Made by a program: the position numbers and the translations under genes
Shown here: in pieces, positions 5,812 through 36,132 of the stretch
Layout of the letters: every line of letters begins with the position of its first letter
Numbering within the stretch: position 1 is the stretch's first letter
Notes under the pieces: model-generated
Database searches by the model: none
Told to the model about the DNA's origin: nothing
Seen by the model: the letters and a program-made list of their open reading frames with translations, nothing else
From: an uncultured Candidatus Saccharibacteria bacterium
Lineage (GTDB): Bacteria; Patescibacteriota; Minisyncoccia; Phycocordibacterales; UBA12088
Length of the DNA: 64,000 bases
Reading direction: 5' to 3'
NCBI GenBank assembly: GCA_964567265.1
Contig: CAZMLK010000001.1
Location: 331,723 to 395,722, forward strand

Positions 5812-5851
5812 GCCGAATCACGCATCCGCCTTTCATCTAAGCCAATATTCG

Positions 5852-5860
5852 TGTTACAAT
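5852..5860 (+). promoter_or_regulatory. atp operon promoter, extended -10 TGTTACAAT
   Basis: TGnTACAAT ending 10 nt before ATG 5871; implies very short or no leader. Confidence 0.45.
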
Positions 5861-5870
5861 GCGGGCGTTT

Positions 5871-6614: not shown

Positions 6615-6676
6615 GGGCGGGAAGAGTGGGCACATGGCGGATTTTGTGTTACAGTACAGCCATAACTTATAAATAA

Positions 6677-6925
<249 letters not shown>

Positions 6926-6938
6926 CCCGACCGGTGTC

Positions 6939-7388: not shown

Positions 7389-7391
7389 CAT

Positions 7392-7769: not shown

Positions 7770-7782
7770 TTATTTAAATACC

Positions 7783-9357: not shown

Positions 9358-9366
9358 TATCCAAAC

Positions 9367-10179: not shown

Positions 10180-10186
10180 ATCGTAT

Positions 10187-12524
<2,338 letters not shown>

Positions 12525-12726
12525 CAAAATGAAAGGCCTGGTCTCCTAGGGAGCACAGGCCTTGAGGCTTCAGAATGTTCTGACTTCTAATATCGATTCA
12601 GAAATGCAACTCCTACCTGGATCGCAGGGAGATATAGGAAGAACGCTTTGCCGAAATCAAACCATGTTTCCATCGCACATCCTCCGACATTTCGCTCAGT
12701 CCATACGTTAGGTTTTTTAGATACAC

Positions 12727-12966
12727 ATGTCAACATTCCATATACACATCGCATCGGTGGACGACGTCCTTTTTAGCGGCGAGGGCGAGGCCGTTACGGT
12801 GCCTGGAAGCGAGGGGGTCATGACCATCCTCGCGCATCACAGCCCGATCGTCTCTGCCCTCAAGGAGGGTACCGTCATCGTACGGGCATCTGGAGGAGAG
12901 CAGCACTTCGAGATCAAGCGGGGCGTGCTCGAAGTCTCGAACGACGCCGCGACGATCCTTCTCTAG
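12727..12966 (+). CDS. atpC: F0F1 ATP synthase subunit epsilon (beta-sandwich domain only, 79 aa)
   Basis: Operon position; SGEGEAVTVPGSEGVMTILAHHSPIVSALKEGTV pattern of epsilon N-domain; C-terminal helical hairpin absent. Confidence 0.85.
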   Translation: MSTFHIHIASVDDVLFSGEGEAVTVPGSEGVMTILAHHSPIVSALKEGTVIVRASGGEQHFEIKRGVLEVSNDAATILL

Positions 12967-13022
12967 TGGGCAAGGCGTCCCCCAGTGCGTATACTGTTCT
13001 CATATCTGCTAATTGAACATCC

Positions 13023-13661
13023 ATGTACCGAGAAGGAGCGAATTTGAATGAAGCCGAAGCAGCTGAAGGCGAACAGCTTTCAGGCATTGAAGCCGGCGAA
13101 GGTTTGGCCGAAGGAGCGGCAGAGAAACGAAAGGCTTTTACTGAAGACATGGAGGCGGTGAGCAGTATCCAGGAGCTTGCGGATGTACTCATAAAGCATG
13201 CCGATGATGAAACGGCTCTTCTCACGCTCGGCGCCGGCGAGCATGCAATGCAAGTGCCGCTCCACGAGATTTTGAGATTGGTAAATGATAAGGATTGGAT
13301 GGCACTCCGTACGAACTACCAGGATGACGCGCTTGAACAGGTACTCTTCAAGCTCCGTTTGAGCGAGGAGACGGCGTCTGACGAGCGTGAGCGAGCTCAT
13401 TTTGAGAACAATCGCGCGGCGTTCATAAGCGCCGTCCAGGGAGCGGGGAGTCTCGAAGGCGTCGCGGATGTGCTGACCCAGTTTGCAAATCCGGATACCA
13501 ACATGGTCACTCTCGGCGTCTTCGACAATGCGCGGGAAGTGCCCCTTGATGAGCTTCTCGAGATCGTCAAAGAGGGCCAGTGGTCAGCGATCGGGCGAAA
13601 GTACGGCGGCATCGACGACATGCTCGAGAACGCGATATTCAAGCTGGCTACCGCAGAGTAG
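13023..13661 (+). CDS. hypothetical protein with internal ~65-aa tandem duplication
   Basis: Two similar segments (ELADVLIKHADDETALLTLGAGEHAMQVPLHEILRLVNDKDW.. and GVADVLTQFANPDTNMVTLGVFDNAREVPLDELLEIVKEGQW..); TGcgTATACT promoter upstream. Confidence 0.6.
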   Translation: MYREGANLNEAEAAEGEQLSGIEAGEGLAEGAAEKRKAFTEDMEAVSSIQELADVLIKHADDETALLTLGAGEHAMQVPLHEILRLVNDKDWMALRTNYQDDALEQVLFKLRLSEETASDERERAHFENNRAAFISAVQGAGSLEGVADVLTQFANPDTNMVTLGVFDNAREVPLDELLEIVKEGQWSAIGRKYGGIDDMLENAIFKLATAE

Positions 13662-13680
13662 GTTCGTAAAAGATCGCACA

Positions 13681-13720
13681 AACAAACCGCCGCTCCCTTC
13701 GGGAGCGGCGGTTTGTTTTG
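13681..13720. terminator. bidirectional rho-independent terminator between convergent genes
   Basis: AACAAACCGCCGCTCCC-TTCG-GGGAGCGGCGGTTTGTT with T/A tracts both sides. Confidence 0.85.
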
Positions 13721-13730
13721 ACTCGCCGTA

Positions 13731-16700
13731 TTAGAAGTGCAGCTTGCCTGGCTTCTGGACGTAGAGGATCGGCACGAGGAGGAGCGTGATGACTGCCGCA
13801 AACGCGAGACCGAACATGATCGCGATCGCGAGCGGCGCCCAAAGGCCTCCCGCCAAGGAGAGCGGGATCATGCCGATCACGGTCGTGATGTTGGTGAGTG
13901 TGATCGGGCGGAGGCGGATCGCGGCTCCTTCGATGACCACGTCGTGGATCGGCATGTCAGGGTGCTCGAGGCGGAGCTTGTTGATCACGTCGATGAGGAG
14001 AATGGTGTGGTTCACAATGATGCCCGCGAGCGCGATGAAGCCGAGAAGCGATGGGAATGAGAGCGGAAGGCGCGTGAGCGCGAGGCCGACCATGATGCCG
14101 ATCAATGTGAGCGGCACGATCGAGAGGACATAGAGTGAATGGCGCCATGAGTTGAAGTCGAACATGAGAACCGCGAGCATGAAGATGATGCCTGCGATGA
14201 GGGCGAAGAACATTTCCATGAACGACTGGTCCACTTCCTCATTCTCGCCTCCGATCACCATGCGGACTCCGCTCTGGATCGTGAGCGTCTCACCTGCCCG
14301 CTTCTTGAATTCGGCGGTGACGTCGCGAGCGTTTGCGCCCTCGAGCAGATCGCTTCCGACAGTCGCGACGCGATCGCCTTCCTCGTGGTTGATCGCAGCG
14401 CTTGCTTTCGCGACGCGCGAGGAAAGGAGCGAGCCGAGAAGGACCGCCCCCTGCGGCGTCGGCACTTGGATGGCCTCGATGGATTCGATGCCGGTCTTCG
14501 CGGCGTCATGCGGATCCGTATAGGACGGATTGAGGTTCGCGGAGACGATCACCTCTATGTCTCCGTTCGGTGTGCGGATCGTGGTCGCCTTCGTGCCCTG
14601 GACCGCCGTCCGCAGGATCGAAGCCACTGACGCGGAGTCGATGCCGAGCTCGGCAGCCTTCGCCTTGTCGATCGAGAGGATGAATTCCGTACCGTCGTCC
14701 TTGGTGGAGGTAGTGATATTCGAAGTTCCGTCGATGCCCGCAAGGATCTTTGCTGATGCGTCTGCGAGGCGCTCCATTGCCTCGAGATCCTCACCGAGGA
14801 ATTTCACGAGGATCGGACGGCCGACGGGCGGCCCGTTCTGCGGCTCGCTGATGCGGACTTCGCTGGTGTGGATGGTCCGGAACCGCTCGCGGAGGAGTGC
14901 GGAAAGCTCTGCGCTCGTGCGATCGCGATCTTTCGCTTTCTTGAGATTGATGAAGATGTTTCCGAGCTTGCTGTCGCTGCTTGGATTATTTCCAAACTGG
15001 CTCGATGCGCCCGCAGTGATAGAGAAGGAAGAAATTTCGGGGATGTCGTAGAGTGACTCCTCGATGCGGCGAAGCTCGAGATCGGTGACCTGTACCGGCG
15101 TGCCCTGCGGCATCTCGACTTCGGTAATGAGGTAGTCTACATCCTCGCCAGGGAAGAAGATGACCTTCACGACTCCGATGATCGGGAAGAGGAGCGAAAC
15201 GAAGAAGAGGCCGATCAAGGACCATTTGATCTGCCGCATGAGGCGCGGCTTGTAGAGGATGTCGCTCATCGTCTTCCGGTACCAGGCCTGGAAGCGATCC
15301 ATATAGCGATCCTGCCAAGTCTTTGCATTCTCGCCAGAATGGCCGGTCAATGTTGAGGCGCCGATGAGTGGCACAAACACGAGCGCGACCACGAGAGAGG
15401 CGATGAGGACGAAGATGATGGTGAAGGGGATGGTGGCGATAAACTGGCCCGTGACGCCCGAGATGAAGAAGAGTGGCACGAACACGGCGACCGTCGTGAG
15501 GATTCCGGTCGTAAGCGGCGCATGATAAGTCTTCACGGCGAGAAGCGCGGCCTCGGCACGAGAATGCCCCTTCGTGATGAAGGTGTACATGCTTTCGACG
15601 ATCACGATGCCGGCATCGACGAGGATACCGACCGCAAGGATGAGCGCGAACAGGGAGACGAAGTTGATTGTGTTCCCGGACTTGTAGAGGCCGATGAACG
15701 CGAGGATGAATGAAATCGGGATCGAGGAGCTCGCGACAAGGGCTTCACGCCAGCCAACGGTGAGGAAGAGGACGAGCATCACGAGAATGACGGTCTCGAA
15801 GCCGGTGCGGGTGAGCTCGGAAAGGCTCTTCTTGAGTTCCTCTCCTGAGTTGAATACGGAAATGACGGTGATGCCATCGAGAGACTCGCCCGGCTTCTGG
15901 AGCTCTACGAGCTTCGCATCCACCGCATCAGTGATTGTCGTGATATTCCCGCCGCTTCGTTTGAATACGGAAAGGGTGAGGGAGGAATTGGAAGGCTGGC
16001 CGCCGACGGAGATGCGGGAAATGCTGGTTTCCGGCGCAAGGCCGTCATAGACATCCGCGACGTCGCGGACATACACGGCGCGGCCGTTAATCGAGGTGAT
16101 CGCGAGGTCTCGGATCTCTGAAGGGTCATTGATATCGCCCTCGAACTGGATGCCGTAGCGGACGCCATCGAGCTCGATGGCTCCGACAGGGAGGTTCGCG
16201 TTGCCGCGTGCAAGGGCGCCGATCACGTCAGTGATGCGGATGCCGTAGGATGCGAGCGCTTCCTTGCGGACCACCACCTGCGTCTCGCGATCGCGCTTGC
16301 CGCCGATCTCGACACGGGAAACGCCGGGAACGGTGATCAGCTGGTCCTTCAGATTTTCAGCAAGCGTGCCGAGCTCTTCAGGCGGCGCGTCGCTTCCGAT
16401 CGCGAACGTATAAATAGGCTGGTTGACGAAATTGACGTCGGAGACGATCGGATCGTTCGCTTCATCAGGAAGTTCGGTCTTCACCTTATCCACTTCATCC
16501 TTGAGGTCTTGGATGGATTTATCGAGGTCTGCGCTCGCGGTGAATTCGACGACGACGGTCGAAACGCTCTCACGCGAGGTCGAGGTGACATTCTTCACGT
16601 TCTCAAGGCTTCCGGAGAGCTGATCCTCCACCTTGTTGGTGATGAGGGTCTCCACATCGAGTGCGGAGGCACCCGGCAAAAATACGGAAACAACGCCGAT

Positions 16701-16832
16701 CGGAATGCGCACTTCAGGTGCGGATTCCTTCGGGATGACGATCAGCGAATACAGTCCGGCAACCGCAAGGGCGCCGAGCAGCAAGTACGTGAAATTCTGC
16801 TTTTGAATGAAGAAGCTCCAGAGTCGGTACAT
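13731..16832 (-). CDS. RND family efflux transporter permease (AcrB/HAE1-like)
   Basis: 1033 aa, 12-TM RND architecture, N-terminal ..LIVIPKESAPEVRIPIGVVSVFLPGASALDVE.. Confidence 0.9.
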   Translation of the reverse strand: MYRLWSFFIQKQNFTYLLLGALAVAGLYSLIVIPKESAPEVRIPIGVVSVFLPGASALDVETLITNKVEDQLSGSLENVKNVTSTSRESVSTVVVEFTASADLDKSIQDLKDEVDKVKTELPDEANDPIVSDVNFVNQPIYTFAIGSDAPPEELGTLAENLKDQLITVPGVSRVEIGGKRDRETQVVVRKEALASYGIRITDVIGALARGNANLPVGAIELDGVRYGIQFEGDINDPSEIRDLAITSINGRAVYVRDVADVYDGLAPETSISRISVGGQPSNSSLTLSVFKRSGGNITTITDAVDAKLVELQKPGESLDGITVISVFNSGEELKKSLSELTRTGFETVILVMLVLFLTVGWREALVASSSIPISFILAFIGLYKSGNTINFVSLFALILAVGILVDAGIVIVESMYTFITKGHSRAEAALLAVKTYHAPLTTGILTTVAVFVPLFFISGVTGQFIATIPFTIIFVLIASLVVALVFVPLIGASTLTGHSGENAKTWQDRYMDRFQAWYRKTMSDILYKPRLMRQIKWSLIGLFFVSLLFPIIGVVKVIFFPGEDVDYLITEVEMPQGTPVQVTDLELRRIEESLYDIPEISSFSITAGASSQFGNNPSSDSKLGNIFINLKKAKDRDRTSAELSALLRERFRTIHTSEVRISEPQNGPPVGRPILVKFLGEDLEAMERLADASAKILAGIDGTSNITTSTKDDGTEFILSIDKAKAAELGIDSASVASILRTAVQGTKATTIRTPNGDIEVIVSANLNPSYTDPHDAAKTGIESIEAIQVPTPQGAVLLGSLLSSRVAKASAAINHEEGDRVATVGSDLLEGANARDVTAEFKKRAGETLTIQSGVRMVIGGENEEVDQSFMEMFFALIAGIIFMLAVLMFDFNSWRHSLYVLSIVPLTLIGIMVGLALTRLPLSFPSLLGFIALAGIIVNHTILLIDVINKLRLEHPDMPIHDVVIEGAAIRLRPITLTNITTVIGMIPLSLAGGLWAPLAIAIMFGLAFAAVITLLLVPILYVQKPGKLHF

Positions 16833-16841
16833 AGGATTGTT

Positions 16842-18491
16842 TTAGTTGGCAGCAGCTCCGGCTTCGACAACGACATCACCCGGCTTGAATCCGCGTGCAT
16901 CGGTCACGATGACCATGTCCGGGGTCGCGCCGGTGAGGAGAAGGACTTTTCCTCCGACCACAGATCCGAGAGTGACGACATGCGGGACGAGGGCCATGTT
17001 CTCATCAACGGTAAAGATTGTGGTTTCCGTGGCGCCTATCTTGACTGCGGTAAGCGGAACGAAAAGTTCAGTTGAGGTTGCGTTGCCGTTCGTTGAAGCA
17101 ACTGGCGTGCCGCCTGTTCGTTCAATATCGATGCGAACCGTAGAGCCCTGCGTAAGAACTGCAGCCTTGTCGGTGACACCGACCTTGATCTCGACCTTCT
17201 TTGTCGCTGGATCAAGTCCGGGAGCGACTGAGGTGACGACGCCCGCATACTTTCCTTCGATCTGCGCCTTGGCGCCGACAACAATGGAATTCTTCTCGCG
17301 ATCGCTGACATACGCCACGATCTCGAGGCCGCCGTTCGACGAGGATACGGTCGCCGCGGGCTCGAACGAGCCGACGAATGACCCCTTCGAGAGCGTGAGC
17401 GTGTTCACTTTTCCGGAGATCGGAGTGCGGACGACGCTCTTCTCGTAGTTGGCGCGCGCGAGCGCGAGCGAGGCTTCTGCCTGCTTGAGACCGGCATCTG
17501 CGGCACGCACATCCTCGCTCTGTCCGCCCACCTGGCCCTGGGTCAGATTCTTTTCCGCGATCTCGAGAGCGCTGCGGCGATTGCTCAGATTTTCTTCCGC
17601 AGCAGTCACGGCCGAAAGATTGGCGAGGATGGTGGTGCGGCCGGTCGCGGCGCTCACTTTATATCCGGCGATGTCGCTGTCGGAAACGGTGCCGGTGGAG
17701 ATTGCACGGTTCAGCGCTGCCGCAAGGGTGTCGAAGAATGCTTTCACCGTCTGGAGCTCTGCTTCGGTCGTCTTCAGTTCCGAATCGACATTGGATGCAG
17801 ACAGCGTGCCGCGGGCTCCCGCCTCGCGCTTCATGATGCCTTCGATCTTGATGCGTGCGGCAACGAGGTTGGTCGCGAGCTGTGAATCGGAAGCGGTGAT
17901 ATTGAAACTCGGATTCGAGGAACGCGGGTTCGAGAACATCTCATCCGCCAGGCGGGTGACCGTGTCATCGATCGCGGCGTATGCCGACTGGACCGTGGTC
18001 TGCGCGCCTGTCTCAGCATTCCGAAGGGAAGACTCCGCGTTGTCGCGGCTTATCGTGAGGACCGAGAGCTGCTCGTTCCGGACGCCGCGCGTGAGCTTGT
18101 CGTACGAGGCCTGTGCCTGCGCGACGAATGCTGCAGCCTGCGCGACGCTTGCACGTTCAGACGCATTCTCGATTTCAGCGAGAACCGCTCCCGCGCCGAC
18201 CGTATCTCCGACGTGCGCATAGACGGCAGTCACTTCGCCCGACTTCTCGGTGCGGAGGATTGCCTCAGACTGCGAGTGGACCGTTCCGATGACCGGAAGG
18301 GTCGCCTTTGATGACGCAAGCGCTGCAATCGAGGAGAGAGTGACCTGACGGGTGTGCGTGTCCGCGACGGCTGCATCGTCACCATTACCTCCGAAAATGA
18401 AATACGCACCGGCTGCAAGGAGGACGATCAGCAAAAGGGCGCCGAGAACGATCCGGTTTTTCGAAGCGAAGGTCATGTTCTTGAAATTCAT
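16842..18491 (-). CDS. efflux RND periplasmic adaptor / membrane fusion protein
   Basis: N-terminal TM, biotin-lipoyl-like hairpin (AVYAHVGDTVGAGAVLAEI), long coiled coil, beta-barrel C-terminus; 9 nt upstream of RND permease. Confidence 0.85.
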   Translation of the reverse strand: MNFKNMTFASKNRIVLGALLLIVLLAAGAYFIFGGNGDDAAVADTHTRQVTLSSIAALASSKATLPVIGTVHSQSEAILRTEKSGEVTAVYAHVGDTVGAGAVLAEIENASERASVAQAAAFVAQAQASYDKLTRGVRNEQLSVLTISRDNAESSLRNAETGAQTTVQSAYAAIDDTVTRLADEMFSNPRSSNPSFNITASDSQLATNLVAARIKIEGIMKREAGARGTLSASNVDSELKTTEAELQTVKAFFDTLAAALNRAISTGTVSDSDIAGYKVSAATGRTTILANLSAVTAAEENLSNRRSALEIAEKNLTQGQVGGQSEDVRAADAGLKQAEASLALARANYEKSVVRTPISGKVNTLTLSKGSFVGSFEPAATVSSSNGGLEIVAYVSDREKNSIVVGAKAQIEGKYAGVVTSVAPGLDPATKKVEIKVGVTDKAAVLTQGSTVRIDIERTGGTPVASTNGNATSTELFVPLTAVKIGATETTIFTVDENMALVPHVVTLGSVVGGKVLLLTGATPDMVIVTDARGFKPGDVVVEAGAAAN

Positions 18492-25486: not shown

Positions 25487-26530
25487 ATGGCCAAACCAAG
25501 CCTCACATTCAAGCCGAAGCAGATCTCAAAGCGCCTCCTTTCCGCGCTTCCACCACGAGCCCGAGAAGTGATCGAAGGCCGCTACGGCCTCGGCACCACT
25601 TCCGAGCGTATTACGCTTGAAGGGATCGGTTCTACCTACGGCATCACCCGAGAGCGCGTGCGCCAGATCGAGAACTATGCCCTCGGATCCATCCGAAAGT
25701 CTCCTGCATTCAAGGCGGAGAAGGCTGCCTTTGACGAGCTCGAGAAGATCATCTCCGGTCTTGGCGGATTGGTTGCAGAAGAAGAGCTCCTTGCGCTTCT
25801 CGCGAAGGATCAGCCGACACGCAACCACATCCACTTCCTCCTTGTCCTCGGTGACGCATTCACGCGCGAGAAGGAAGACGAGGAATTCCAGCACCGCTGG
25901 TTCGTCGATCCGAAGCTCGCTGAGAGCATCCACGAATCGCTCCGCACGCTCTACAAGAGCCTTTCAGACAATGACCTCATCCCGGAATCAGAGCTTATCA
26001 ACCGGTTCCTTAACGAGATCGAGGACCTGAACGAGAAATTCCGAAACGATGAGATCGCGAAGCGTTGGCTCGGACTCTCGAAGACGCTCGGGAAGAACCC
26101 GCTCGGAGAATGGGGACGTGCCGCCTCTCCGAATGTCCGCGTGAAGGGCATGCGCGATTACGCATACCTCGTCATCAAGCGCCATGGATCCCCGATGCAC
26201 TTCCGCGAGGTCGCGAAGGCTATCACGACCGTCTTCAACAAGAAGGCGCATGAGGCGACCACCCACAATGAACTCATCAAGGACAAGCGCTTTGTGCTCG
26301 TCGGCCGCGGCCTCTACGCGCTCGCAGAATGGGGCTACACCAACGGCGTCGTGAAGGATGTCATCGCCGGTATTCTCAAGAAGAACGGCCCGCTCTCAAA
26401 GGACGACATCATCGAGAAGGTACGGAACGAGCGCTATGTGAAGAACAATACGATCGTCGTGAACTTGCAGGACGGGAAAGTGTTCAAGCGCGACAAGAAT
26501 GGGCTCTATACGCTCGCGAAGGGCCAGTAA
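25487..26530 (+). CDS. sigma-70 region 4 HTH domain protein with C-terminal extension
   Basis: N-terminal LSALPPRAREVIEGRYGL..ITLEGIGSTYGITRERVRQIENYAL = sigma70 region 4 HTH; no region 2; 347 aa. Confidence 0.8.
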   Translation: MAKPSLTFKPKQISKRLLSALPPRAREVIEGRYGLGTTSERITLEGIGSTYGITRERVRQIENYALGSIRKSPAFKAEKAAFDELEKIISGLGGLVAEEELLALLAKDQPTRNHIHFLLVLGDAFTREKEDEEFQHRWFVDPKLAESIHESLRTLYKSLSDNDLIPESELINRFLNEIEDLNEKFRNDEIAKRWLGLSKTLGKNPLGEWGRAASPNVRVKGMRDYAYLVIKRHGSPMHFREVAKAITTVFNKKAHEATTHNELIKDKRFVLVGRGLYALAEWGYTNGVVKDVIAGILKKNGPLSKDDIIEKVRNERYVKNNTIVVNLQDGKVFKRDKNGLYTLAKGQ

Positions 26531-26669: not shown

Positions 26670-27971
26670 ATGGGCAAATTAATTGAAAATCTTGAAAAAA
26701 TCGGGGTCCTGCCCTATGTCATCGGAACCCTGTTCGTTGGCATTCTTGGATTCTATTTGTACAAAGTACCGTTCACTGTCTTTGGCGCATTCCCGCTCAT
26801 TTTCCAGCTTATGCCGATCTGGCTGCCGCCCATCCTGGTCGCCACCATCTGGAAGCTTTGGATGCGATACATCCGCTTCTATGAATACACCAACCGCCAG
26901 TACACGCTTCTTGAGATCAAGCTTCCAGCCGACGTGACGCAATCGCCGCGCGCCATGGAAGTCATCCTGAACGTGATGTACCACACGGATGAGTCCGGCA
27001 ACTTCTTCGAGAAGTACTGGGACGGCAAGACCGCGCCTTGGTTCTCGCTCGAGATCGCCTCGATGGAAGGCCGCATCCATTTCTATATCTGGATGCGTTC
27101 GAACTATAAGAACATCGTCGAGTCCCAGATCTATGCGCACTACCCGACCGTTGAGGTCAACGAGGTCCCGGACTACACGCAGGATGTCGTATATGACGAG
27201 AAGACCATGGATCTCTGGGGAATCGAGCAGAAGCTCCAGAATCCCGATCCGTATCCCATCATGACCTACGTCGACTTCGGCCTAGATAAGGATCCGAAGG
27301 AAGAGTTCAAGATCGATCCATTGCATTCCGTGATCGAATTCCTCGGCTCGATCGGGCAAGGAGAGTATTGCTGGGTCCAGATCGGTATCCGCGCGCACTC
27401 AAAACTCTATCCGAAGCCGGGAGCGCGCTTCGAGAAGATGCATTGGAACGGCGTCGTTGAATCTGAGATCAAGAAGATTCTTGCCCGTACAGTTGATGAC
27501 AAGGGCCGCACCAACGCGATGCAGCTCACCGAAGGGGAGCGGGACAAGCTGAAAGCCATGCAGCGGAATGCGAACAAGAAGCCGTTCGATACCGGCATGC
27601 GCATTATTTATATCGACAAGAAGATCGCCCAGCATCCGAGCCGCAACAACGGCATCCCCACCATGTTCCGTTCATTCGAGCATGCGTCCGAAGGCATGGG
27701 GTACAATGGACTTCGCCCGGTATTCGTCATCGGATACTCATACAAGCTCCGGGATCCATCAGGAGCCGAGAAGCGGGCGCACAAGCGTGCGTTGTATCGC
27801 TTCTACCGCATGCGATCCTTCTTCCACTGGCCGCGCGCGAAGAATATATTCGTGATGAGCAGCGAGGAACTGGCGACCTTGTATCACTTCCCGGGACGCG
27901 CAAGCATGACGCCGACACTCGAACGCATCCCGTCGAAGCGCAGCTCTGCACCTCCGAATCTCCCGATCTAG
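26670..27971 (+). CDS. hypothetical membrane-anchored protein (2 N-terminal TM + ~340-aa domain)
   Basis: No recognisable motif; W/Y-rich; 11 bp upstream of mltG, so co-transcribed. Confidence 0.65.
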   Translation: MGKLIENLEKIGVLPYVIGTLFVGILGFYLYKVPFTVFGAFPLIFQLMPIWLPPILVATIWKLWMRYIRFYEYTNRQYTLLEIKLPADVTQSPRAMEVILNVMYHTDESGNFFEKYWDGKTAPWFSLEIASMEGRIHFYIWMRSNYKNIVESQIYAHYPTVEVNEVPDYTQDVVYDEKTMDLWGIEQKLQNPDPYPIMTYVDFGLDKDPKEEFKIDPLHSVIEFLGSIGQGEYCWVQIGIRAHSKLYPKPGARFEKMHWNGVVESEIKKILARTVDDKGRTNAMQLTEGERDKLKAMQRNANKKPFDTGMRIIYIDKKIAQHPSRNNGIPTMFRSFEHASEGMGYNGLRPVFVIGYSYKLRDPSGAEKRAHKRALYRFYRMRSFFHWPRAKNIFVMSSEELATLYHFPGRASMTPTLERIPSKRSSAPPNLPI

Positions 27972-29284: not shown

Positions 29285-29342
29285 GGGTCCAAACTCCAGC
29301 TGAAAGTTGCGTTCCTCGTGACATTCCCATACATTGGGATAC

Positions 29343-30431
29343 ATGTCAAAAGGGAAAGTCTATCTCGGGATGTCGGGCGGTGTTGATTCCTCGGTGTCCG
29401 CAGCGCTGCTTCAAGAACAGGGCTACGACGTCACCGGCATCTTCATCACGGTCTGGCAACCTGATTTCATCGTCTGTACGGCAACTGCCGACCGCCTGGA
29501 CGCGATGCGCGTCTGCGCCGCGCTCGGAATCCCGTTCCGTGACCTCGATCTCACCGACGTATACAAGCGCGAGGTCGTCGATTACATGGTCAGGGAATAT
29601 TCAAGAGGACGTACCCCGAACCCCGACGTGATGTGCAACCAACACGTGAAATTCGGAGCCTTCTTCGAGTGGGCGATCAGGGAGGGTGCTGATTTCGTCG
29701 CGACTGGCCACTACGCGCAGTCGGTCCAGAATCCTGCATCCAAAGCGCACGAACTCCAGGTAAGCAAGGACGTCAACAAGGATCAGACGTATTTCTTGTG
29801 GACGCTCACAATGGCACAGCTCGCGAAGACGCTATTTCCCGTGGGCGGGATGCAAAAAGCAGAAGTGCGCCAGGAGGCGGAGCGGTTCCATCTTCCGACT
29901 GCCACGAAGAAGGATAGCCAAGGCCTGTGCTTCATCGGCAAGCTCGACCTGAAGGAATTCCTCTCGCACTTCGTCGAATCGAAGCAGGGAGAAGTTTTGT
30001 CCGTTGCAGGCGCAGTCATCGGTACGCACGACGGCGCGCTATTCTACACGCTCGGGCAGCGACACGGCTTCCACGTTGACGCGAAGACCCCGAGTGATCA
30101 GCCTCTCTACGTCGTCGCCAAGGATGTCGTGGCGAATACCATCACCGTCGGAGACAAGGGGCCCGGGAGCACCGCGGGCGTCACGCATGGCGCGCTCCTG
30201 TCTTCGATCTCGTGGATCAGCGGCGCAGCACCAGATCTTGAGACGCCGATCGAGGCTCGTTTTCGGTACCGACAAAAGCTTTTGCCTGTCACAGTGCATC
30301 CGCGCGGATCAGGCAGCCTTTCTGTCAGGTTCAATGAGGGTGCGGAGTACGTCCCTGTCGGCCAATCCGTTGTCTTTTATCGAGAAGATACTTGCCTCGG
30401 TGGCGGCATCATCGAAGAAACAACAGGCTAG
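29343..30431 (+). CDS. mnmA: tRNA 2-thiouridine(34) synthase MnmA
   Basis: MSKGKVYLGMSGGVDSSV PP-loop, CNQHVKFGAF; ATG 29343 preferred over TTG 29334. Confidence 0.93.
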   Translation: MSKGKVYLGMSGGVDSSVSAALLQEQGYDVTGIFITVWQPDFIVCTATADRLDAMRVCAALGIPFRDLDLTDVYKREVVDYMVREYSRGRTPNPDVMCNQHVKFGAFFEWAIREGADFVATGHYAQSVQNPASKAHELQVSKDVNKDQTYFLWTLTMAQLAKTLFPVGGMQKAEVRQEAERFHLPTATKKDSQGLCFIGKLDLKEFLSHFVESKQGEVLSVAGAVIGTHDGALFYTLGQRHGFHVDAKTPSDQPLYVVAKDVVANTITVGDKGPGSTAGVTHGALLSSISWISGAAPDLETPIEARFRYRQKLLPVTVHPRGSGSLSVRFNEGAEYVPVGQSVVFYREDTCLGGGIIEETTG

Positions 30432-30504
30432 GACTGCCAACAACAGCGCCTTTTCATGGAAAATGCATTCGCGTATACTGTAGCTAACCTACTAGCAACA
30501 GTAT

Positions 30505-30969
30505 ATGACCCAGGAAAATAAACCATTCATCATTCTCGTCGTGCTCGGAGTCGTCGGTGTGCTCTTCTGGATGTATGGGCCGACCATCAAGAATATGAAT
30601 GTCGCTCGGACCGGCGATCTTCCTGCAAGCGCGGTTGACCAGCTCCCGCCACCGCCACCTCCTCCGAGCATCCCCATGACGCCTGCGATCGAGATAGAGG
30701 CAACGCACGTATACGCTGCCGGAACGCACACGATCACCGGTGTCATACACAAGGAAGCCCCATGTGACACGGTCACGACAGGCGTCGTCGTCGGAAAGTC
30801 AGTACCGGAGCAAGTGCTCGTGACGATCACGGATACTCCGTCCAAGAAGGCGTGTGCCGCAAAGACGAGCGATGAGAAATTCACGGTCTCGTTCGCTGCA
30901 GGGCCGGATGCGATGATCAAGCCGGCGTTCAACGGACAGTCAGCCGTCTTCAAGTTCGAAGGCGAATAA
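30505..30969 (+). CDS. membrane-anchored hypothetical protein with poly-Pro linker
   Basis: N-terminal TM, PPPPPPPS linker, C-terminal ~100-aa domain; TATACT promoter at 30473. Confidence 0.6.
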   Translation: MTQENKPFIILVVLGVVGVLFWMYGPTIKNMNVARTGDLPASAVDQLPPPPPPPSIPMTPAIEIEATHVYAAGTHTITGVIHKEAPCDTVTTGVVVGKSVPEQVLVTITDTPSKKACAAKTSDEKFTVSFAAGPDAMIKPAFNGQSAVFKFEGE

Positions 30970-30973
30970 TCTC

Positions 30974-31822
30974 ATGGAAGGAACATTCTTGGTTACAAAA
31001 GCGGACGGCTCTACTGAGCCGTTTGTGGTTGATAAGCTTCGATCCTCGCTTCAGCGCTCCGGGGCGAGTTCTGAGATGATATCGACAATCATCGAGGAGC
31101 TGGATCCGGTTTTCCAGAACGGCATCACGACAGAAGAAATTTATCGCCGCGCATTCCAGCTTTTGAAAAAAGAAGAGCGCGTCACCGCGTCGCGCTACTC
31201 ACTTCGCCGCGCGCTTTTCGGTTTCGGACCGACAGGATTTCCGTTCGAGGATTTCGTTGCCGCCATCTTCAAGGCGAAAGGGTATGAAACGAAGACGCGC
31301 GTGATGCTGAAAGGCCGGTGTGTCGAGCATGAAGTGGACGTTCTCGCGCAAAAGGATGGCAAGACTATCGGCGCTGAGCTCAAGTTCCACAACGACAGTG
31401 CAGTCAAATCGGATGTGAAGATCGCGCTCTACGTGCATGCACGCTTCGAGGACATCCGGCTCGGCTCGGAGGAGGAGCATACGCAGGCACCGGTCACTGA
31501 GCCCTGGCTCATCACGAATACAAAATTCACCGGGCAGGCGATCCAATTCGGCAAATGCGCAGGGCTTACCATGATCGGATGGAGTTATCCCGAGAAGGGC
31601 AATCTGCAGGACCTTATAGAGGAATCCGGCATCCACCCGCTCACCTGCCTCACGACACTCTCGAAGAGCGAGAAAGTCCAATTGTTGTCCCAGGATGTCG
31701 TCCTCTGCAAGGCGCTTCCTGATAATCCTGATCTGCTCCGCAAGATCGGGATGCCGGAGGCAAAGATCAAGAAAGTCCTGGAAGAGAGCACGCTCTTGTG
31801 CCAGCCAGGAGCGGCGCGGTAA
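30974..31822 (+). CDS. ATP-cone domain + restriction endonuclease-fold (Mrr-like PD-(D/E)XK) protein
   Basis: N-terminal LVTKADGSTEPFVVDKLRSSLQRSG..EEIYRRAFQLL (ATP-cone); middle FEDFVAAIFKAKGY..HEVDVLAQKDGKTIGAELKF (D..E.K nuclease core). Confidence 0.8.
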   Translation: MEGTFLVTKADGSTEPFVVDKLRSSLQRSGASSEMISTIIEELDPVFQNGITTEEIYRRAFQLLKKEERVTASRYSLRRALFGFGPTGFPFEDFVAAIFKAKGYETKTRVMLKGRCVEHEVDVLAQKDGKTIGAELKFHNDSAVKSDVKIALYVHARFEDIRLGSEEEHTQAPVTEPWLITNTKFTGQAIQFGKCAGLTMIGWSYPEKGNLQDLIEESGIHPLTCLTTLSKSEKVQLLSQDVVLCKALPDNPDLLRKIGMPEAKIKKVLEESTLLCQPGAAR

Positions 31823-31853
31823 ACTAGGGTATTAGCAATAGTAGGCGTTCCGT

Positions 31854-32417
31854 ATGAACACACAAGCAGTTTCAGGTACGGTTCAGGATGCGGGCACGTC
31901 ATGGGGAATGACTGCGAAGATTGGTGCAGGTTTTGTCGCAGGATTGGTGGTCGGAGGAGTCCTTGGCTGGATGATTTGGCACAATAGCGATGCAGACGGG
32001 ACGACGAATACGGGTTCAAGCGTGCCACGCGGCACCGTGACGGACACCGGAAGCAACACTTCGACGAATACCAGCACGGCAAGCGGACTGGTCCCGGATG
32101 GGTCATTCGTCGTCTCGAAGCAGAAGGCAGGAGACGTCGTTGCCGTTGAGAAAGTTGCATTTGGCGCAGGCGGCGGCTGGGTCGTGATCCGCGATGATGT
32201 CTCCGGCGCAGTCGGGAACGCGCTGGGCGCCCACTGGTTCCCGGAAGGAGCATCGACCGGCGATGTGACCCTGCTTCGAAATACCGAGGCTGGAAAAAGC
32301 TACCACGCGATTTTGTACACCGACGATGGCAATAAGACGTTTTCTCTCCAGGAAGACAAGCCGCTCGTCTCATCCGTGAATGGGAAGCCAATCGAGATAC
32401 TTTTTACAGCTGAATAA
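31854..32417 (+). CDS. membrane-anchored hypothetical protein with Thr/Ser-rich linker
   Basis: TM at ~20-40, TNTGSSVPRGTVTDTGSNTSTNTSTASG linker, beta-rich C-domain. Confidence 0.6.
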   Translation: MNTQAVSGTVQDAGTSWGMTAKIGAGFVAGLVVGGVLGWMIWHNSDADGTTNTGSSVPRGTVTDTGSNTSTNTSTASGLVPDGSFVVSKQKAGDVVAVEKVAFGAGGGWVVIRDDVSGAVGNALGAHWFPEGASTGDVTLLRNTEAGKSYHAILYTDDGNKTFSLQEDKPLVSSVNGKPIEILFTAE

Positions 32418-32419
32418 GC

Positions 32420-32917
32420 ATGGAGCCCTACATCGGCACAACTGAAATCCAGATTTTCCTCCAGCTCATCCTTGCCGTGACGCTTGGACTCCTCCTCGGA
32501 GCAGAGCGCACGCTTGCGGGGAAGAATGCAGGTATGCGGACACACGCGCTTGTCGCACTCGCATCGACGCTCCTCGTCTCGGTCTCAGTTGCGTTGATTT
32601 CCGTCGCGGACGTGAATCCGAATGTTAAATTCGACGTATTCAATGTCGTAAGTGGCATCGTGACGGGTATGGGCTTCATCGGTGCCGGCGCGATCCTTTT
32701 CCGCGACCAGACGCTGAAAGGCCTCACGACTGCAGCCGGCCTCTGGGTGACGGCTGCAATAGGCATCAGCATCGGATTCGGATTCTATGCGGTCGGCATC
32801 TTTGCCGCGTTCCTCACCCTGTTTGTCTTCCGAGTGCTCTGGTTCCTCGAGGATCGCATCAAGGTGCTGGTAAAGCATGACGATATTGAGCCGACAAATG
32901 GATCCGCAAGCAGTTAA
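32420..32917 (+). CDS. MgtC/SapB family membrane protein
   Basis: LGLLLGAERTLAGKNAGMRTHALVAL signature of MgtC family. Confidence 0.8.
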   Translation: MEPYIGTTEIQIFLQLILAVTLGLLLGAERTLAGKNAGMRTHALVALASTLLVSVSVALISVADVNPNVKFDVFNVVSGIVTGMGFIGAGAILFRDQTLKGLTTAAGLWVTAAIGISIGFGFYAVGIFAAFLTLFVFRVLWFLEDRIKVLVKHDDIEPTNGSASS

Positions 32918-32946
32918 GGAAGAAGCGGGTTATTGATACAAATGAA

Positions 32947-32982
32947 CAGAACCCCTGTCTGCGAACGCGGACAGGGGTTCTG
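32947..32982 (+). terminator. terminator hairpin immediately followed by TATACT promoter
   Basis: CAGAACCCCTGTCTGCG-AAC-GCGGACAGGGGTTCTG then GTATACT. Confidence 0.7.
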
Positions 32983-32997
32983 GTATACTGCAGTCAC

Positions 32998-33795
32998 ATG
33001 GCATACGAAAAGAAGAAGGGGCCGCGGAGTGCGGACTGGAATTACGGCGGGCCGAAGTGGCGGCTGTCACGTTCGAAGATAGATGTATTCATGGAGTGCC
33101 AGCGCTGCTTCTATTTAGACAACAAGCTCGGGGTCGCGCGTCCGCGCGGACCTTCATTCACGCTGAATGTCGCCGTAGACGCGCTCCTCAAGAAGGAGTT
33201 CGACATCCTCCGGAAAAACAAGAAGCCGCATCCGCTCATGGAGAAGTATGGCGTCGATGCCATCCCGTTCACGCACAAGGAGCTGGATACCTGGCGCGAG
33301 AACTTCGAGGGCATCCGATATCTCCACGAGCCCACCGGGCTTACCGTATCAGGCGCAGTCGACGATCTCTGGGTGAATCCGAAAGGGGAGCTCCATATCG
33401 TCGATTACAAGGCGACGAGCAAGGAAGAGGGGCCATCGACCGTTGAGGCCCTCTACCCTTCGTACAAGCGCCAGATGGAAATCTACCAGTGGCTGTTCCG
33501 CCAGAACGGATTCCAGGTCTCGCCAATTGCATATTTCGTCTACGTGAACGGGAAATCAGACGCTGCCTCATTCGACGGCAAGCTTGAATTCGACACCGTC
33601 CTCATTCCGTACGAGGGCAACGATTACTGGGTTGAAGGAGTGCTTCCCGAGATCAAGGCACTTCTCGAGTCGGATGCGATCCCTCCTGCGGGAACGGGAT
33701 TCGGCGGCGGCCCGTGCGAATTCTGCGCATATCGCGAGATGGCCGGCAAGATACTCATGCAGAAGCACTATGCAGAAAAAGCAAAAAACAAGTAA
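32998..33795 (+). CDS. PD-(D/E)XK nuclease family protein, Cas4/RecB-like with flanking Cys pairs
   Basis: N-terminal SRSKIDVFMECQRCFY, core IVDYKAT (D..K), C-terminal GGGPCEFCAY. Confidence 0.8.
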   Translation: MAYEKKKGPRSADWNYGGPKWRLSRSKIDVFMECQRCFYLDNKLGVARPRGPSFTLNVAVDALLKKEFDILRKNKKPHPLMEKYGVDAIPFTHKELDTWRENFEGIRYLHEPTGLTVSGAVDDLWVNPKGELHIVDYKATSKEEGPSTVEALYPSYKRQMEIYQWLFRQNGFQVSPIAYFVYVNGKSDAASFDGKLEFDTVLIPYEGNDYWVEGVLPEIKALLESDAIPPAGTGFGGGPCEFCAYREMAGKILMQKHYAEKAKNK

Positions 33796-34063
33796 GGAAG
33801 ATTCATTCACCGAGCGCGTCCGTGCAGTGGTTCGGAAGATCCCGAGGGGAAAGACAATGACGTACGCTGCGGTGGCATCGAAAGTGGGTGCGCCCGGTGC
33901 ATCACGCGCGGTCGGCACTATCATGGCGAGGAACTTCGACCCCGACATCCCGTGCCATCGCGTCATCCGCTCCGACGGCAAGATCGGGCAGTACAACCGC
34001 GGCGGCCCGGCGAAGAAGCGCGCGCTCCTCATCGCTGAGGGAGCACTTCTGGCGGACGCATAA
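33770..34063 (+). CDS. MGMT-family protein (methylated-DNA-protein-cysteine methyltransferase DNA-binding domain only)
   Basis: IPCHRVIRSDG active-site PCHR motif, helix-turn-helix YAAVASKVGAPGASRAVG; overlaps preceding gene by 26 nt in another frame. Confidence 0.8.
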   Translation: MQKKQKTSKEDSFTERVRAVVRKIPRGKTMTYAAVASKVGAPGASRAVGTIMARNFDPDIPCHRVIRSDGKIGQYNRGGPAKKRALLIAEGALLADA

Positions 34064-34164: not shown

Positions 34165-36132
34165 ATGACCACGAAAAAACACACCATTCCGAGCCTCAAG
34201 GATGTCGACACGAGCGTCCGTCCACAGGATGATTTCTACGCCTACGCGGTCGGCAAGTGGCTCGCGAAGAACCCCATTCCGAAGACGGAGTCGCGCTGGG
34301 GAAGCTTCCATATTCTCCGCGAGAACAGCAAGGACCAGCTCCATGCGATCGCGCTCGAGGTCGCGAAGGACGCACGTGCCAAGAAGGGATCGCCCGAGCA
34401 GCTGGTTCGGGATTTTTGGATATCTGGGATGGACGAAGCTGCGCGTGAGAAGCTCGGGAGCGCACCGCTCATTCCGATCTTCAAGAAGATAGACGCGCTC
34501 AAGAGTGAAAAAGACATCGTGCCATTCATCGCCGAAGCCCACAAGATGGGCATTGATGCGCTCTGGGGCGCGTACGTGGGGCCTGATGACAAGCGGAGCG
34601 AGCGGAATATCTTCCACCTCTACCAGTCCGGCATCTCACTTCCGGACCGCGATTACTATATAAAGACCGATCCTGATTCGATCCGCATCCGCGAGGCCTA
34701 TCTGAAGCACGGCACCAAGATGTTCGAGTTGGTCGGGCTCTCCAGGAAGGAGGCCGCCATGGCGATGCGGATCGTCCTCCAGATCGAGACCTCGCTCGCG
34801 GAAGCGTCGATGACCGGCGTCGAGCGCCGGGATGTCGAGAAGCAGTACAACAAGCGGAGCGTGAAGAAGCTCGTCTCCGAAGCGCCGCTCGATTGGGCAA
34901 CCTATCTGAAGCGTCTCGGCGCCGGTTCGGTCAAGGAACTGATCGTCGCGCAGCCGTTGTTTATGAAGCGCGCAAGCGAGCTCCTCCAGACCATATCGCT
35001 TCCGGAGTGGAAGATATACTTGAAATGGCAGGCGATCGATGAGTTCGCACCCTTTCTCAGCACACCGTTCCTAACGGAGCACTTCAATTTCTACGGAAGG
35101 ACGCTTTCCGGCACCAAGGAGATACAGCCACTCTGGAAGCGAACCATCGCGGTCATCGACGCATCCGTCGGGGATGCGCTCGGGAAGCTCTACGTCGCGA
35201 AGCACTTCAACGCCGAAGCGGAGCGGAAAATCAACGCGCTCGTTGATAATCTCTTCGACACCTATGCCGCGCGCATCAAGACGCTCGACTGGATGAGCGC
35301 GCCCACCAAGAAGAAGGCGCTCGCGAAGCTCTGGCAGATCAACCGCAAGCTCGGGCACACGAAGAAATGGAAGACCTATGCGGGCCTCGACATCAAGCCG
35401 AATGATTTCATCGGCAATCTCTCACGTTCTCACACGCTCGCGCTCAAGCGGATGCTCAAGAAGATCGGAAAGGCACCTGATCGCACGGAATGGCACATGA
35501 CGCCGCCGACCGTGAATGCCTACTATTGGCCGAACATGAATGAGATCGCTTTTCCTGCGGGCATCATGCAGCCCCCGTTCTTCGATCCGGCTGCTCCCGA
35601 CGCCATCAATTACGGCGCGATCGGTTCCGTGATCGGGCACGAGCTCACACATGGATTCGACGACCAGGGCTGCCAATTCGACGGCAAGGGGAACTTCAAG
35701 AACTGGTGGACCGCGGATGATGCTGCGAAGTTCGCAAAGAAAACAAAGATGCTCGTGAAGCAGTACGATGATTTCGTTGCTGTCGGGGACATGCATGTCA
35801 ACGGGAAGCTGACGCTCGGCGAAAACATCGCAGACCTCGGGGGCGTCGTCATCGCATTCGAAGCCATGCAGCGCGCTCTCAAAGGCAAGAAGATTGAACT
35901 CGTGAACGGCTTCACGCCAGAACAACTGTTCTTCATAGGATACTCCTTCACTGAAGCCACGAACACGCGGCCGGAGGCCCTGAAGCGCCAGGTCATCACG
36001 GATCCGCACTCGCCGTCACCCTTCCGGGTAAATGGACCCTTGGCGCACGCTGAGGAGTTCTACAAGGCATTCGATGTGAAATCCGGAGACAAGCTTTTCC
36101 GCAAGCCAAGCGATCGCGTGAAGATCTGGTAA
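34165..36132 (+). CDS. M13 family zinc metallopeptidase (neprilysin/PepO-like)
   Basis: HELTHGFDDQG HExxH, GENIADLGG, 655 aa. Confidence 0.92.
   Translation: MTTKKHTIPSLKDVDTSVRPQDDFYAYAVGKWLAKNPIPKTESRWGSFHILRENSKDQLHAIALEVAKDARAKKGSPEQLVRDFWISGMDEAAREKLGSAPLIPIFKKIDALKSEKDIVPFIAEAHKMGIDALWGAYVGPDDKRSERNIFHLYQSGISLPDRDYYIKTDPDSIRIREAYLKHGTKMFELVGLSRKEAAMAMRIVLQIETSLAEASMTGVERRDVEKQYNKRSVKKLVSEAPLDWATYLKRLGAGSVKELIVAQPLFMKRASELLQTISLPEWKIYLKWQAIDEFAPFLSTPFLTEHFNFYGRTLSGTKEIQPLWKRTIAVIDASVGDALGKLYVAKHFNAEAERKINALVDNLFDTYAARIKTLDWMSAPTKKKALAKLWQINRKLGHTKKWKTYAGLDIKPNDFIGNLSRSHTLALKRMLKKIGKAPDRTEWHMTPPTVNAYYWPNMNEIAFPAGIMQPPFFDPAAPDAINYGAIGSVIGHELTHGFDDQGCQFDGKGNFKNWWTADDAAKFAKKTKMLVKQYDDFVAVGDMHVNGKLTLGENIADLGGVVIAFEAMQRALKGKKIELVNGFTPEQLFFIGYSFTEATNTRPEALKRQVITDPHSPSPFRVNGPLAHAEEFYKAFDVKSGDKLFRKPSDRVKIW

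Follow-up and report, generated by a model that had tools for sequence, protein, structure and literature searches.

A predicted ATP-cone/PD-(D/E)XK nuclease encoded in a conserved gene block of Candidate Phyla Radiation bacteria

To our knowledge, ATP-cones are known experimentally solely as regulators of ribonucleotide reductases (RNRs) and of the repressor NrdR. They regulate through nucleotide-dependent oligomerisation, and NrdR tetramers, in the account given by one source, bind DNA only with ATP plus dATP (10.1101/2024.05.27.596032). The other described protein that matters here is AF1548 of Archaeoglobus fulgidus (Protein Data Bank, PDB, entry 1Y88), itself a structural-genomics "hypothetical protein" whose nuclease role is predicted only. 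That prediction, of a restriction-type nuclease with catalytic residues D38, E51 and K53, was made by Yooseph et al. in 2007 in the Global Ocean Sampling paper (PMC1821046), and a search of the literature on AF1548 found nothing beyond it. The gene considered here, g2, encodes a protein in which relatives of these two are fused. It lies in a stretch of 64,000 nucleotides (henceforth the window, whose coordinates are used throughout) from the genome of an uncultured Candidatus Saccharibacteria bacterium, a member of the Candidate Phyla Radiation (CPR), and is one of four plus-strand genes, g1 to g4, occupying positions 30505-32917. We tentatively read g2, by analogy with described ATP-cone proteins, as a nucleotide-gated nuclease that would serve nucleic-acid turnover and nucleotide or energy homeostasis, a reading to which we give a little less than an even chance.

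The g2 open reading frame (ORF; 30974-31822, plus strand) encodes 282 amino acids (aa), which fall into three predicted domains. Residues 1-85 (30974-31228) form an ATP-cone, recognized by Pfam (PF03477, residues 7-79, 33.3 bits against a cutoff of 25.8), by the predicted structure and by Foldseek. Residues 88-205 (31235-31588) form a PD-(D/E)XK core of the AF1548/Mrr type, with D122, E135 and K137; here the evidence is a match to Mrr_cat (residues 88-194, 24.9 bits against a cutoff of 21), the alignment to 1Y88 and, again, Foldseek. The remainder, residues 206-282 with the stop codon (31589-31822), is a helical C-terminal domain that aligns with the C-terminal half of 1Y88. The corresponding Pfam family, AF1548-like_C (PF22357), gave a weak match with the single sequence; many homologs carry it as a precomputed annotation. 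From about residue 94 to residue 275, g2 matches 1Y88 with E=7e-35 as a single sequence and with E=2.6e-46 as a family profile.

The AlphaFold2 (AF2) model of g2, built on 62 homologs, has a mean predicted local distance difference test (pLDDT) of 91.4 and a predicted template modelling (pTM) score of 0.85. It consists of a beta-hairpin with a helical bundle, an alpha-beta-beta-beta-alpha-beta nuclease core and a helical C-terminal domain. Within the cone (pLDDT 75-96), strands at residues 5-8 and 14-17 are followed by helices from 19 to 82; the C-terminal domain has a pLDDT of 88-96. Foldseek against the PDB placed 1Y88 at the top (E=7e-15, TM-score 0.75 on the target), followed by the ligand-gated PD-(D/E)XK nucleases Cdn1, Can2 and Card1 and then by MspJI and NucS (2vld). 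The N-terminal part was matched to the cones of NrdA, NrdB and NrdR. The fusion of an ATP-cone to a PD-(D/E)XK nuclease, which an earlier note had proposed on reading this DNA, is real by all these measures: Pfam scores above cutoff for both parts, the match to 1Y88, the modelled fold and the structural neighbours.

In the alignment to 1Y88, the catalytic D38, E51 and K53 predicted for AF1548 correspond to D122, E135 and K137 of g2, which the model places on strands 118-127 and 130-137. This triad is kept by 70 of 70 CPR homologs and 62 of 62 database homologs, and its equivalents by 35 of 35 homologs from outside the CPR. In all three alignments E92, C116, H119, E120, H139, R157, D160 and N182 are also invariant, as are T181 and T183 in the CPR alignments, the equivalent of T183 being invariant in the non-CPR alignment too. 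With the triad conserved across the homologs, the objection that the active site might not be conserved, raised along with the proposal of the fusion, fails; g2 is predicted to be a cytoplasmic three-domain enzyme with an intact nuclease site, and to regard it as a putative nucleotide-gated nuclease is reasonable. The cone is conserved as well. K9, G12 and K21 are invariant in 97 of 97 sequences, and T53 occurs in all of the 62 CPR sequences and in at least 90% of the 35 from elsewhere.

A further feature of the protein is a set of four cysteines, C116, C195, C245 and C276, which are distributed between the nuclease core and C-terminal domain and are common to the CPR and non-CPR branches. Three can also be seen in the alignment to AF1548. 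The four could make up a structural metal or Fe-S site comparable to the "iron staple" found in nucleases of the Cas4/AddB kind.

The family to which g2 belongs is large. At E<=1e-3 it comprises 6,388 clusters at 90% identity, and a search begun from the Criblamydia ortholog gave a similar count. A search with only the nuclease and C-terminal part gives 937 clusters at 50% identity, among which 310 have E<=1e-30. About 135 of the best 150 such matches begin near residue 85 of a protein of about 280 aa, that is, they carry an N-terminal extension of about 85 aa; about ten of the 150 are short cone-less proteins or fragments. Since so many of the best matches carry the extension, the cone-fused form is, so far as these alignments can tell, the dominant architecture of the family. 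The source databases call the members "ATP cone domain-containing protein", "restriction endonuclease", "ATPase" or "Holliday junction resolvase-like predicted endonuclease", all automatic names. The architecture is already catalogued in the annotation of Pfam and NCBI, and the copy in the window is an ordinary member. The distinctive feature is the coupling of an ATP-cone to a predicted nuclease output, and it is the family with its two conserved contexts, rather than this one operon, that is of interest.

The first of these contexts, which proved the most informative finding, lies outside the CPR, in 87 loci that were collected from isolates (Chitinophaga, Psychroserpens, Winogradskyella), metagenome-assembled genomes (MAGs) and a metagenome scan, and then clustered. 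Two of the homologs are on plasmids, of Criblamydia sequanensis and Pontibacter actiniarum, and are 40-43% identical to g2 over its full length. Both head a same-strand cluster in which the ATP-cone nuclease is followed by a hydrolase of the metallo-beta-lactamase (MBL) fold, a protein of about 500 aa of the "thymidine phosphorylase family" and a ribose-phosphate pyrophosphokinase. The same theme runs through the larger set. Sixty-five of the non-CPR loci have enough downstream sequence, and in 27 of these the first gene downstream encodes a beta-CASP/RMMBL nuclease, which in 12 more is second, after an ORF of 84 aa. This protein most resembles aCPSF1 and Cas14, each of them a nuclease of the RNA type. 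Commonly next comes an archaeal-type nucleoside phosphorylase, whose scores exceed the cutoffs of PRK04350 and TIGR02645 and amount to 485 bits, against 535, with the AMP phosphorylase model, and after it a synthetase (PRK07199) of phosphoribosyl pyrophosphate (PRPP).

Around this core, tandem genes for the universal stress protein Usp, in up to four copies, are found in 31 of the non-CPR loci, and other flanking genes encode a 2-hydroxyacid dehydrogenase, phosphofructokinase (PFK), an aldolase of the DeoC/LacD type (class I), a protein like glyceraldehyde-3-phosphate dehydrogenase (GAPDH), HSP20, NDH2, PPK2, P-type ATPases and CstA. In its contents the non-CPR locus resembles a stress locus of the starvation, hypoxia or dormancy type, built, to judge from its predicted genes, around RNA decay and nucleotide catabolism. 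The earlier note had suggested a "defence or stress module", and it is the stress half of that phrase that gains support from these contexts. As to the P-type ATPases, the idea that Mg2+-specific ones lie beside the non-CPR orthologs, which would have made the connection with MgtC stronger, was tried and dropped: those found are Ca-type (IIA) or Cu-type and fall below the Mg-ATPase cutoffs.

One version of the locus recurs in several metagenome contigs (L091, about 2900-16900, L093, L088, L090 and others) as a conserved same-strand stress locus that has apparently not been described. It contains genes for an aldolase, PFK, an MgtC-DUF4010 protein, a 2-hydroxyacid dehydrogenase, tandem Usp, the ATP-cone nuclease, the 84-aa ORF, the beta-CASP RNase, the archaeal-type nucleoside phosphorylase, PRPP synthetase, two ORFs of 220 and 97 aa without known function and a P-type ATPase. 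Metagenome contigs carry no taxonomy, and the isolate examples are Flavobacteriia; the contigs are probably of marine Bacteroidota. The gene content is reminiscent of the mycobacterial DosR regulon.

The second context is that of the CPR. Eighty loci were taken from GTDB species representatives, nearly all of them Patescibacteria/Paceibacteria MAGs (Kaiser-, Zambryski-, Taylor-, Wolfe-bacteria and others), and compared by tblastn and by our own ORF calling and clustering. Here g2 homologs, 42-76% identical, sit in an almost invariant block that runs from the gene for leucyl-tRNA synthetase (LeuRS) through genes for a sigma70_r4/HARE-HTH protein, a DUF8128 protein, MltG and MnmA to g2, and from there, in many cases by way of g3, to genes for PDDEXK_1 (Cas4-like), MGMT and, further on, alanyl-tRNA synthetase (AlaRS). 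Among the 80 loci, mnmA is present in 72, mltG in 69, PDDEXK_1 in 60 (by tblastn, 53-74% identity), MGMT in 47 and g3 in 45, with g1 (by tblastn) and MgtC each in 7, the latter between g2 or g3 and PDDEXK_1. Immediate neighbours were counted where there was enough flank, in 66 loci upstream and 67 downstream. The gene 5' of g2 is mnmA in 57 of the 66, where the gap has a median of -1 nt (the two usually overlap), and g1 in 5; the gene 3' of it is g3 in 37 of the 67, PDDEXK_1 in 10, AlaRS in 6 and MgtC in 4. Judged by this synteny, the g2 family is a core gene in CPR of the Paceibacteria type, vertically inherited and there probably co-transcribed with mnmA. The full order mltG-mnmA-g2-g3-PDDEXK_1 was also met in a contig labelled Patiriisocius sp. 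(L059), and a g3-type gene lies directly 3' of g2 in one labelled Acidimicrobiales (L047), which the clustering left unresolved. Both are probably CPR contigs mis-binned into non-CPR MAGs.

In the window, mnmA, for the tRNA 2-thiouridylase (Pfam), the near-universal upstream neighbour in CPR, is at 29334-30431, and the Cas4-like PDDEXK_1 gene (Pfam, 46 bits), a conserved downstream member of the block, at 32998-33795. The MGMT gene (33770-34063) encodes a 97-aa protein with the C-terminal domain of O6-alkylguanine-DNA alkyltransferase and a PCHR motif (Pfam DNA_binding_1, 98 bits); it overlaps the end of PDDEXK_1 by about 26 nt and was also called as a 97-aa gene in the contig of a near-identical strain (L166). 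All three are on the plus strand. Of these proteins it may be added that the PDDEXK_1 nuclease carries CxxC pairs at both its N and its C terminus, and that the 97-aa protein is the catalytic C-terminal domain of the transferase by itself.

With such neighbours, g2 might be a nuclease of DNA repair or recombination regulated by (d)ATP, for example a structure-specific or Holliday-junction-resolvase-like enzyme working with PDDEXK_1 and the alkylguanine transferase. Both partners are conserved downstream in CPR (60 and 47 of the 80 loci), the Foldseek matches include the repair endonuclease NucS, the Joint Genome Institute (JGI) gives some members of the family a Holliday junction resolvase label, and sensing dATP would be sensible for an enzyme tied to DNA synthesis. 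The JGI names, however, are automatic annotation, and g3 and MgtC separate g2 from the repair genes, with a hairpin and a TATACT box intervening just 5' of PDDEXK_1. Moreover, the non-CPR orthologs are never beside repair genes; they are beside an RNA-type beta-CASP nuclease and genes of nucleotide catabolism. We regard a role in repair as possible and, on balance, doubtful.

A PD-(D/E)XK nuclease of the Mrr type also brings phage defence to mind, either as a type IV restriction enzyme or as an abortive-infection nuclease that senses nucleotide depletion. In favour of this are the Mrr_cat domain itself, the similarity in fold to MspJI and to Cdn1, Can2 and Card1, which are defence nucleases gated by ligands, and the existence of two plasmid-borne copies. 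A PADLOC scan that took in five genes, however, found no significant match, only partial ones to PDC-S02 (E=0.0037) and to the nuclease end of ZorD (E=0.0074), and tblastn found none in 50,697 phage records. Plasmids with a g2 homolog number 2 of 72,556, and in both it belongs to a metabolic operon. No mobile or defence genes flank g2 in the window, the GC content of its region equals that of the flanks, and the gene keeps its place in a housekeeping block across the 80 CPR species. Fixed synteny, flat GC content, the lack of phage matches and near-absence from plasmids are the signature expected of a vertically inherited core gene and not of a defence island. The g2 unit is, on these sequence comparisons, no phage-defence system, and a defensive role for the nuclease, as the earlier note had entertained, strikes us as very improbable. 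A restriction-endonuclease fold is not by itself a sign of defence, tempting as that misreading may be.

In this genome g2 has company that most of its relatives lack. It is preceded by g1 (30505-30969, 154 aa) and followed by g3 (31854-32417, 187 aa), both of which encode membrane-anchored proteins, and by g4 (32420-32917, 165 aa), which encodes a short membrane protein of the MgtC/SapB family; all are plus-strand entries of the ORF list. The earlier note had these four genes and their coordinates right, but the gaps of 5, 32 and 3 nt that it gave are differences between coordinates; the spacers themselves are 4, 31 and 2 nt. The same four genes were found by an independent gene caller in L166, the contig of the near-identical strain, and the same arrangement is seen there and in L001, the closest relative. 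A promoter-like sequence, TTTTCA-17-TATACT (30451-30479, plus strand), ends 25 nt 5' of the ATG of g1. The TATACT noticed before the unit in the first reading of the sequence is present, and L001 has a GTATACT box at the matching position before its own g1, as well as before its PDDEXK_1 ortholog. Promoter-like sites in the region number 2 against 2.1 expected from shuffled sequence, which is not above chance. On the other side, 3' of g4, a 10-bp hairpin can be read from the plus strand, AACCCCTGTC-n10-GACAGGGGTT (32950-32979); it has no T-run, for which reason the terminator scan missed it. Just past it is a second TATACT (32984-32989), 8 nt 5' of the ATG of the next gene. From their spacing, the box upstream and the hairpin downstream, g1 to g4 therefore look like a single transcription unit in this genome.

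Several of these boxes lie unusually close to a start codon. GTATACT is only 7-8 nt before the ATG of PDDEXK_1 in the window (32984-32998) and in L001 (about 7985-8000), and likewise before g1 in L001 (about 5520-5535). Boxes so near the ATG suggest that the lineage may use mRNAs that are leaderless or have very short leaders. A riboswitch, for Mg2+ or PRPP for example, or another leader RNA in the operon was also considered, but Rfam gave nothing of the kind at gathering scores in the window, and on 30300-33100 it gave a chance-level match alone (E=0.19).

The -10 box of g1 is overlapped by an imperfect palindrome, TACTGTAGCTA-n6-TAGCAACAGTA (30476-30503), just 5' of the ATG, and a third copy of the half-site, TAGCAATAGTA, is found in the spacer between g2 and g3 (31833-31843). 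Within the window the half-site has 3 matches, against 0.28 expected in shuffles. The palindrome at the g1 promoter is not kept in L001; it could be a local operator or a product of chance. If an operator, it would recall NrdR, the sole well-studied free-standing ATP-cone protein, and g2 might then be a nucleotide-sensing DNA-binding regulator of a similar kind, the nuclease fold and C-terminal helices binding the operator while the cone sets its occupancy. It would fit that g2 orthologs head a nucleotide-metabolism cluster in Bacteroidota and Chlamydiota, and the placing of the palindrome on the -10 box, with a third half-site before g3, fits as well. Against such a regulator stand the failure of L001 to keep the palindrome and the lack of a Zn-ribbon in g2. 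Against it, too, is the invariance of the D/E/K triad, aligned with that of archaeal AF1548, and of the polar residues E92, H119, E120, H139, R157 and D160, a pattern typical of an active enzyme. We consider a purely regulatory g2 distinctly unlikely.

The g1 protein is membrane-anchored and has a poly-Pro linker, as had been read from its sequence: a hydrophobic N-terminal transmembrane helix and PPPPPPP are followed by a domain of about 90 aa without a known family; Pfam gave no match, and a hidden Markov model (HMM) of g1 matches 9 CPR loci, the window included. The membrane protein with a Thr/Ser-rich linker, g3, is likewise as described: a transmembrane helix and a disordered Ser/Thr-rich linker lead to an Ig/FN3-like beta-sandwich of about 100 aa (AF2 pLDDT for the domain about 90), and Pfam assigns DUF7282 (34.7 bits against a cutoff of 27). 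Foldseek comparison of the g3 model with the PDB returned only weak, generic FN3/Ig matches and no informative neighbour, and g3 looks, from its model, like a generic surface protein. The possibility that g1 and g3 are paralogs of a single family of membrane partners was rejected, as hhalign gave a probability of 16% and aligned the transmembrane helix only. The assignment of g4 to MgtC also held, with 110.8 bits against a cutoff of 31.4 for Pfam PF02308 over the five-transmembrane domain. It falls below the NCBIfam equivalog cutoffs (127 against 214 bits for PRK09977 and 66 against 255 for PRK15385).

It may be, then, that g1 to g4 are a single functional module for the envelope or for Mg2+/ATP homeostasis, in which the nuclease acts with MgtC and the surface-anchored proteins. 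The tight spacing, promoter-like box and hairpin are consistent with this, as is the recurrence of the arrangement in L001 and L166. MgtC-family genes, moreover, recur near g2 in two very distant lineages, in 7 of 80 CPR and 9 of 87 non-CPR loci, which lends some weight to the inclusion of MgtC in the earlier note. The non-CPR cases, from Bacteroidota, are of the MgtC-DUF4010 form (422 aa), and in one of them (L111) the gene is directly 3' of the g2 ortholog. In Salmonella, MgtC inhibits the F1Fo ATP synthase and in this way lowers ATP, a point that we count in favour of the module. However, most members of the g2 family are without all three partners. The expectation that the four-gene arrangement would recur elsewhere holds about halfway for g3, which follows g2 in 37 of 67 CPR loci, but hardly for g1 (5 of 66) or MgtC (7 of 80). 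Put otherwise, neither g1 nor MgtC exceeds 10% of the CPR loci, against about 55% for g3, and none of the 87 non-CPR loci has g1 or g3. The places of the proteins also differ: g1 and g3 would be extracytoplasmic, with generic Ig-like or unknown domains, and g2 cytoplasmic. A single module of this kind is unlikely, and the four-gene unit is better seen, on the distribution of its genes, as a lineage-specific elaboration.

To return to the nucleotide-gated nuclease, its workings may be pictured as follows. An adenine nucleotide would bind the cone of g2, and the binding would change the oligomeric state or the conformation of the protein, as in RNR and NrdR. This change would switch the nuclease on or off, so that the breakdown of nucleic acid, plausibly RNA, would be coupled to nucleotide or energy status, and the products would feed nucleotide salvage. 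In the present genome, g2 has in addition come to share a lineage-specific transcription unit with a short MgtC protein and the two surface-anchored ones.

Several points weigh against this picture. The arginine of the canonical K-R-D-G motif, which should follow K9 (30998-31003), is present in 0 of 97 sequences. The motif is instead K-[AGLQS]-D-G, the residue after K9 being A, G, L, Q, S or E in CPR and A, M, Y or S elsewhere. Because the canonical arginine is missing from all 97 sequences, the cone could have a ligand other than ATP or dATP, or could bind it in a mode that is non-classical by comparison with the cones of RNR and NrdR. The neighbours in CPR, mnmA, the Cas4-like nuclease and the alkyltransferase, include no genes of RNA decay or salvage, and the idea of salvage is transferred from orthologs that are only 40-43% identical. 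Gene order may also be conserved in streamlined genomes for reasons other than function. The substrate could be DNA or RNA, and literature searches on ATP-cone nucleases, restriction endonucleases, Mrr, CPR and the neighbouring genes found no characterised member of the family.

A bolder form of the idea would have a hitherto unrecognised, widespread ATP-cone-gated nuclease begin the regulated breakdown of cellular RNA, or of imported nucleic acid, when adenylate falls, passing its products to the beta-CASP RNase, the nucleoside/AMP phosphorylase and PRPP synthetase, and belonging in CPR to the core gene set. We hold this to be conceivable and rather doubtful. If it is true, the pathway would be a bacterial counterpart of the archaeal nucleotide-catabolic route of the pentose-bisphosphate type, and would have become a core function in CPR bacteria, unable to make nucleotides de novo. 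CPR bacteria are generally regarded as incapable of synthesising nucleotides de novo. Given their dependence on salvaged nucleotides, a nucleotide-gated nuclease could be central to their nucleic-acid turnover. If an ATP-cone does drive a nuclease, this would be a third type of output for the sensor. The family is large, belongs to the core of a major CPR class, occurs also in stress- or dormancy-like loci of Bacteroidota and Chlamydiota and has a homolog of solved structure, yet no function has been assigned to it. Because some Bacteroidota orthologs are found in cultivable species, the question can be put to a direct test.

The remainder of the window is given over to housekeeping, with genes for ATP synthase, AcrB/HlyD, YchF, RpoA, DnaK/J, several aminoacyl-tRNA synthetases and MraY/FtsW/MurG. 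Upstream of mnmA, the block has as further conserved members the 347-aa protein with sigma-70 region 4 and HARE-HTH (25487-26530), found in 64 of 81 loci, and the 433-aa DUF8128 membrane protein (26670-27971), found in 66 of 81. Between the MGMT gene and AlaRS, at 34165-36132, lies a gene for a peptidase of the M13 (neprilysin-like) family, which occurs in 3 of 80 related loci, in the same place in L001 and on the opposite strand in L011 and L014, and so is a lineage-specific insertion in the conserved block. On the minus strand at 13731-18491, a full-length AcrB-type transporter (1,033 aa) of the resistance-nodulation-division (RND) superfamily is encoded with an HlyD-type adaptor, in what is apparently a CPR genome. 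CPR organisms are usually thought to be without an outer membrane, and an AcrB-type transporter is thus unexpected. Four tRNA genes, for Ala-GGC, Pro-CGG, Val-CAC and Ala-CGC, are found at 537-1036.

Set beside the systems described at the outset, g2 shares most with AF1548, to which its nuclease and C-terminal part are homologous, with the D/E/K triad and three of the conserved cysteines in common. AF1548 differs in having no ATP-cone: in its chain of 199 residues, the match to g2 already starts close to the N-terminus. With class I and III RNR and with NrdR, g2 shares the sensor domain, by Pfam and by fold; in our own reading of the alignment range, K9, K21 and T55 of NrdA correspond to K9, K21 and T53 of g2. 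By analogy, nucleotide-dependent oligomerisation would be the expected mode in common. The output is different, a reductase or a Zn-ribbon DNA binder in those proteins and a predicted nuclease in g2, and the g2 family is without the canonical arginine. NrdR has an N-terminal Zn-ribbon followed by an ATP-cone in about 150 aa, whereas g2 begins with the cone, lacks a CxxC...CxxC ribbon and has 282 aa. No nrd gene was found among the ORFs of the window scanned with Pfam.

The CRISPR and CBASS effectors Can2, Card1 and Cdn1 have the same design as g2, a sensor for a small nucleotide joined to a PD-(D/E)XK nuclease, and their cores match that of g2 in Foldseek with E values of 3e-4 to 1e-2. Their sensor is a CARF or SAVED domain instead of an ATP-cone, and g2, unlike them, has no CRISPR or CBASS neighbourhood, being a core, syntenic gene outside defence islands. 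By analogy with these effectors, g2 probably works as a sensor-gated PD-(D/E)XK nuclease. The Mrr-type type IV restriction endonucleases share with g2 the catalytic family Mrr_cat, which scores above the gathering threshold. Unlike them, g2 lacks the Mrr_N winged helix that reads modified DNA, and it has no defence context and no copies in phage records, is almost absent from plasmids and is, by its distribution, vertically inherited. As for the MgtC/SapB/YhiD proteins, g4 matches them strongly over the five-transmembrane domain and differs in its length of 165 aa, in the lack of a C-terminal soluble domain and in falling short of the equivalog cutoffs. By domain content and alignment, g2 itself is an AF1548-like/Mrr_cat nuclease that bears an ATP-cone.

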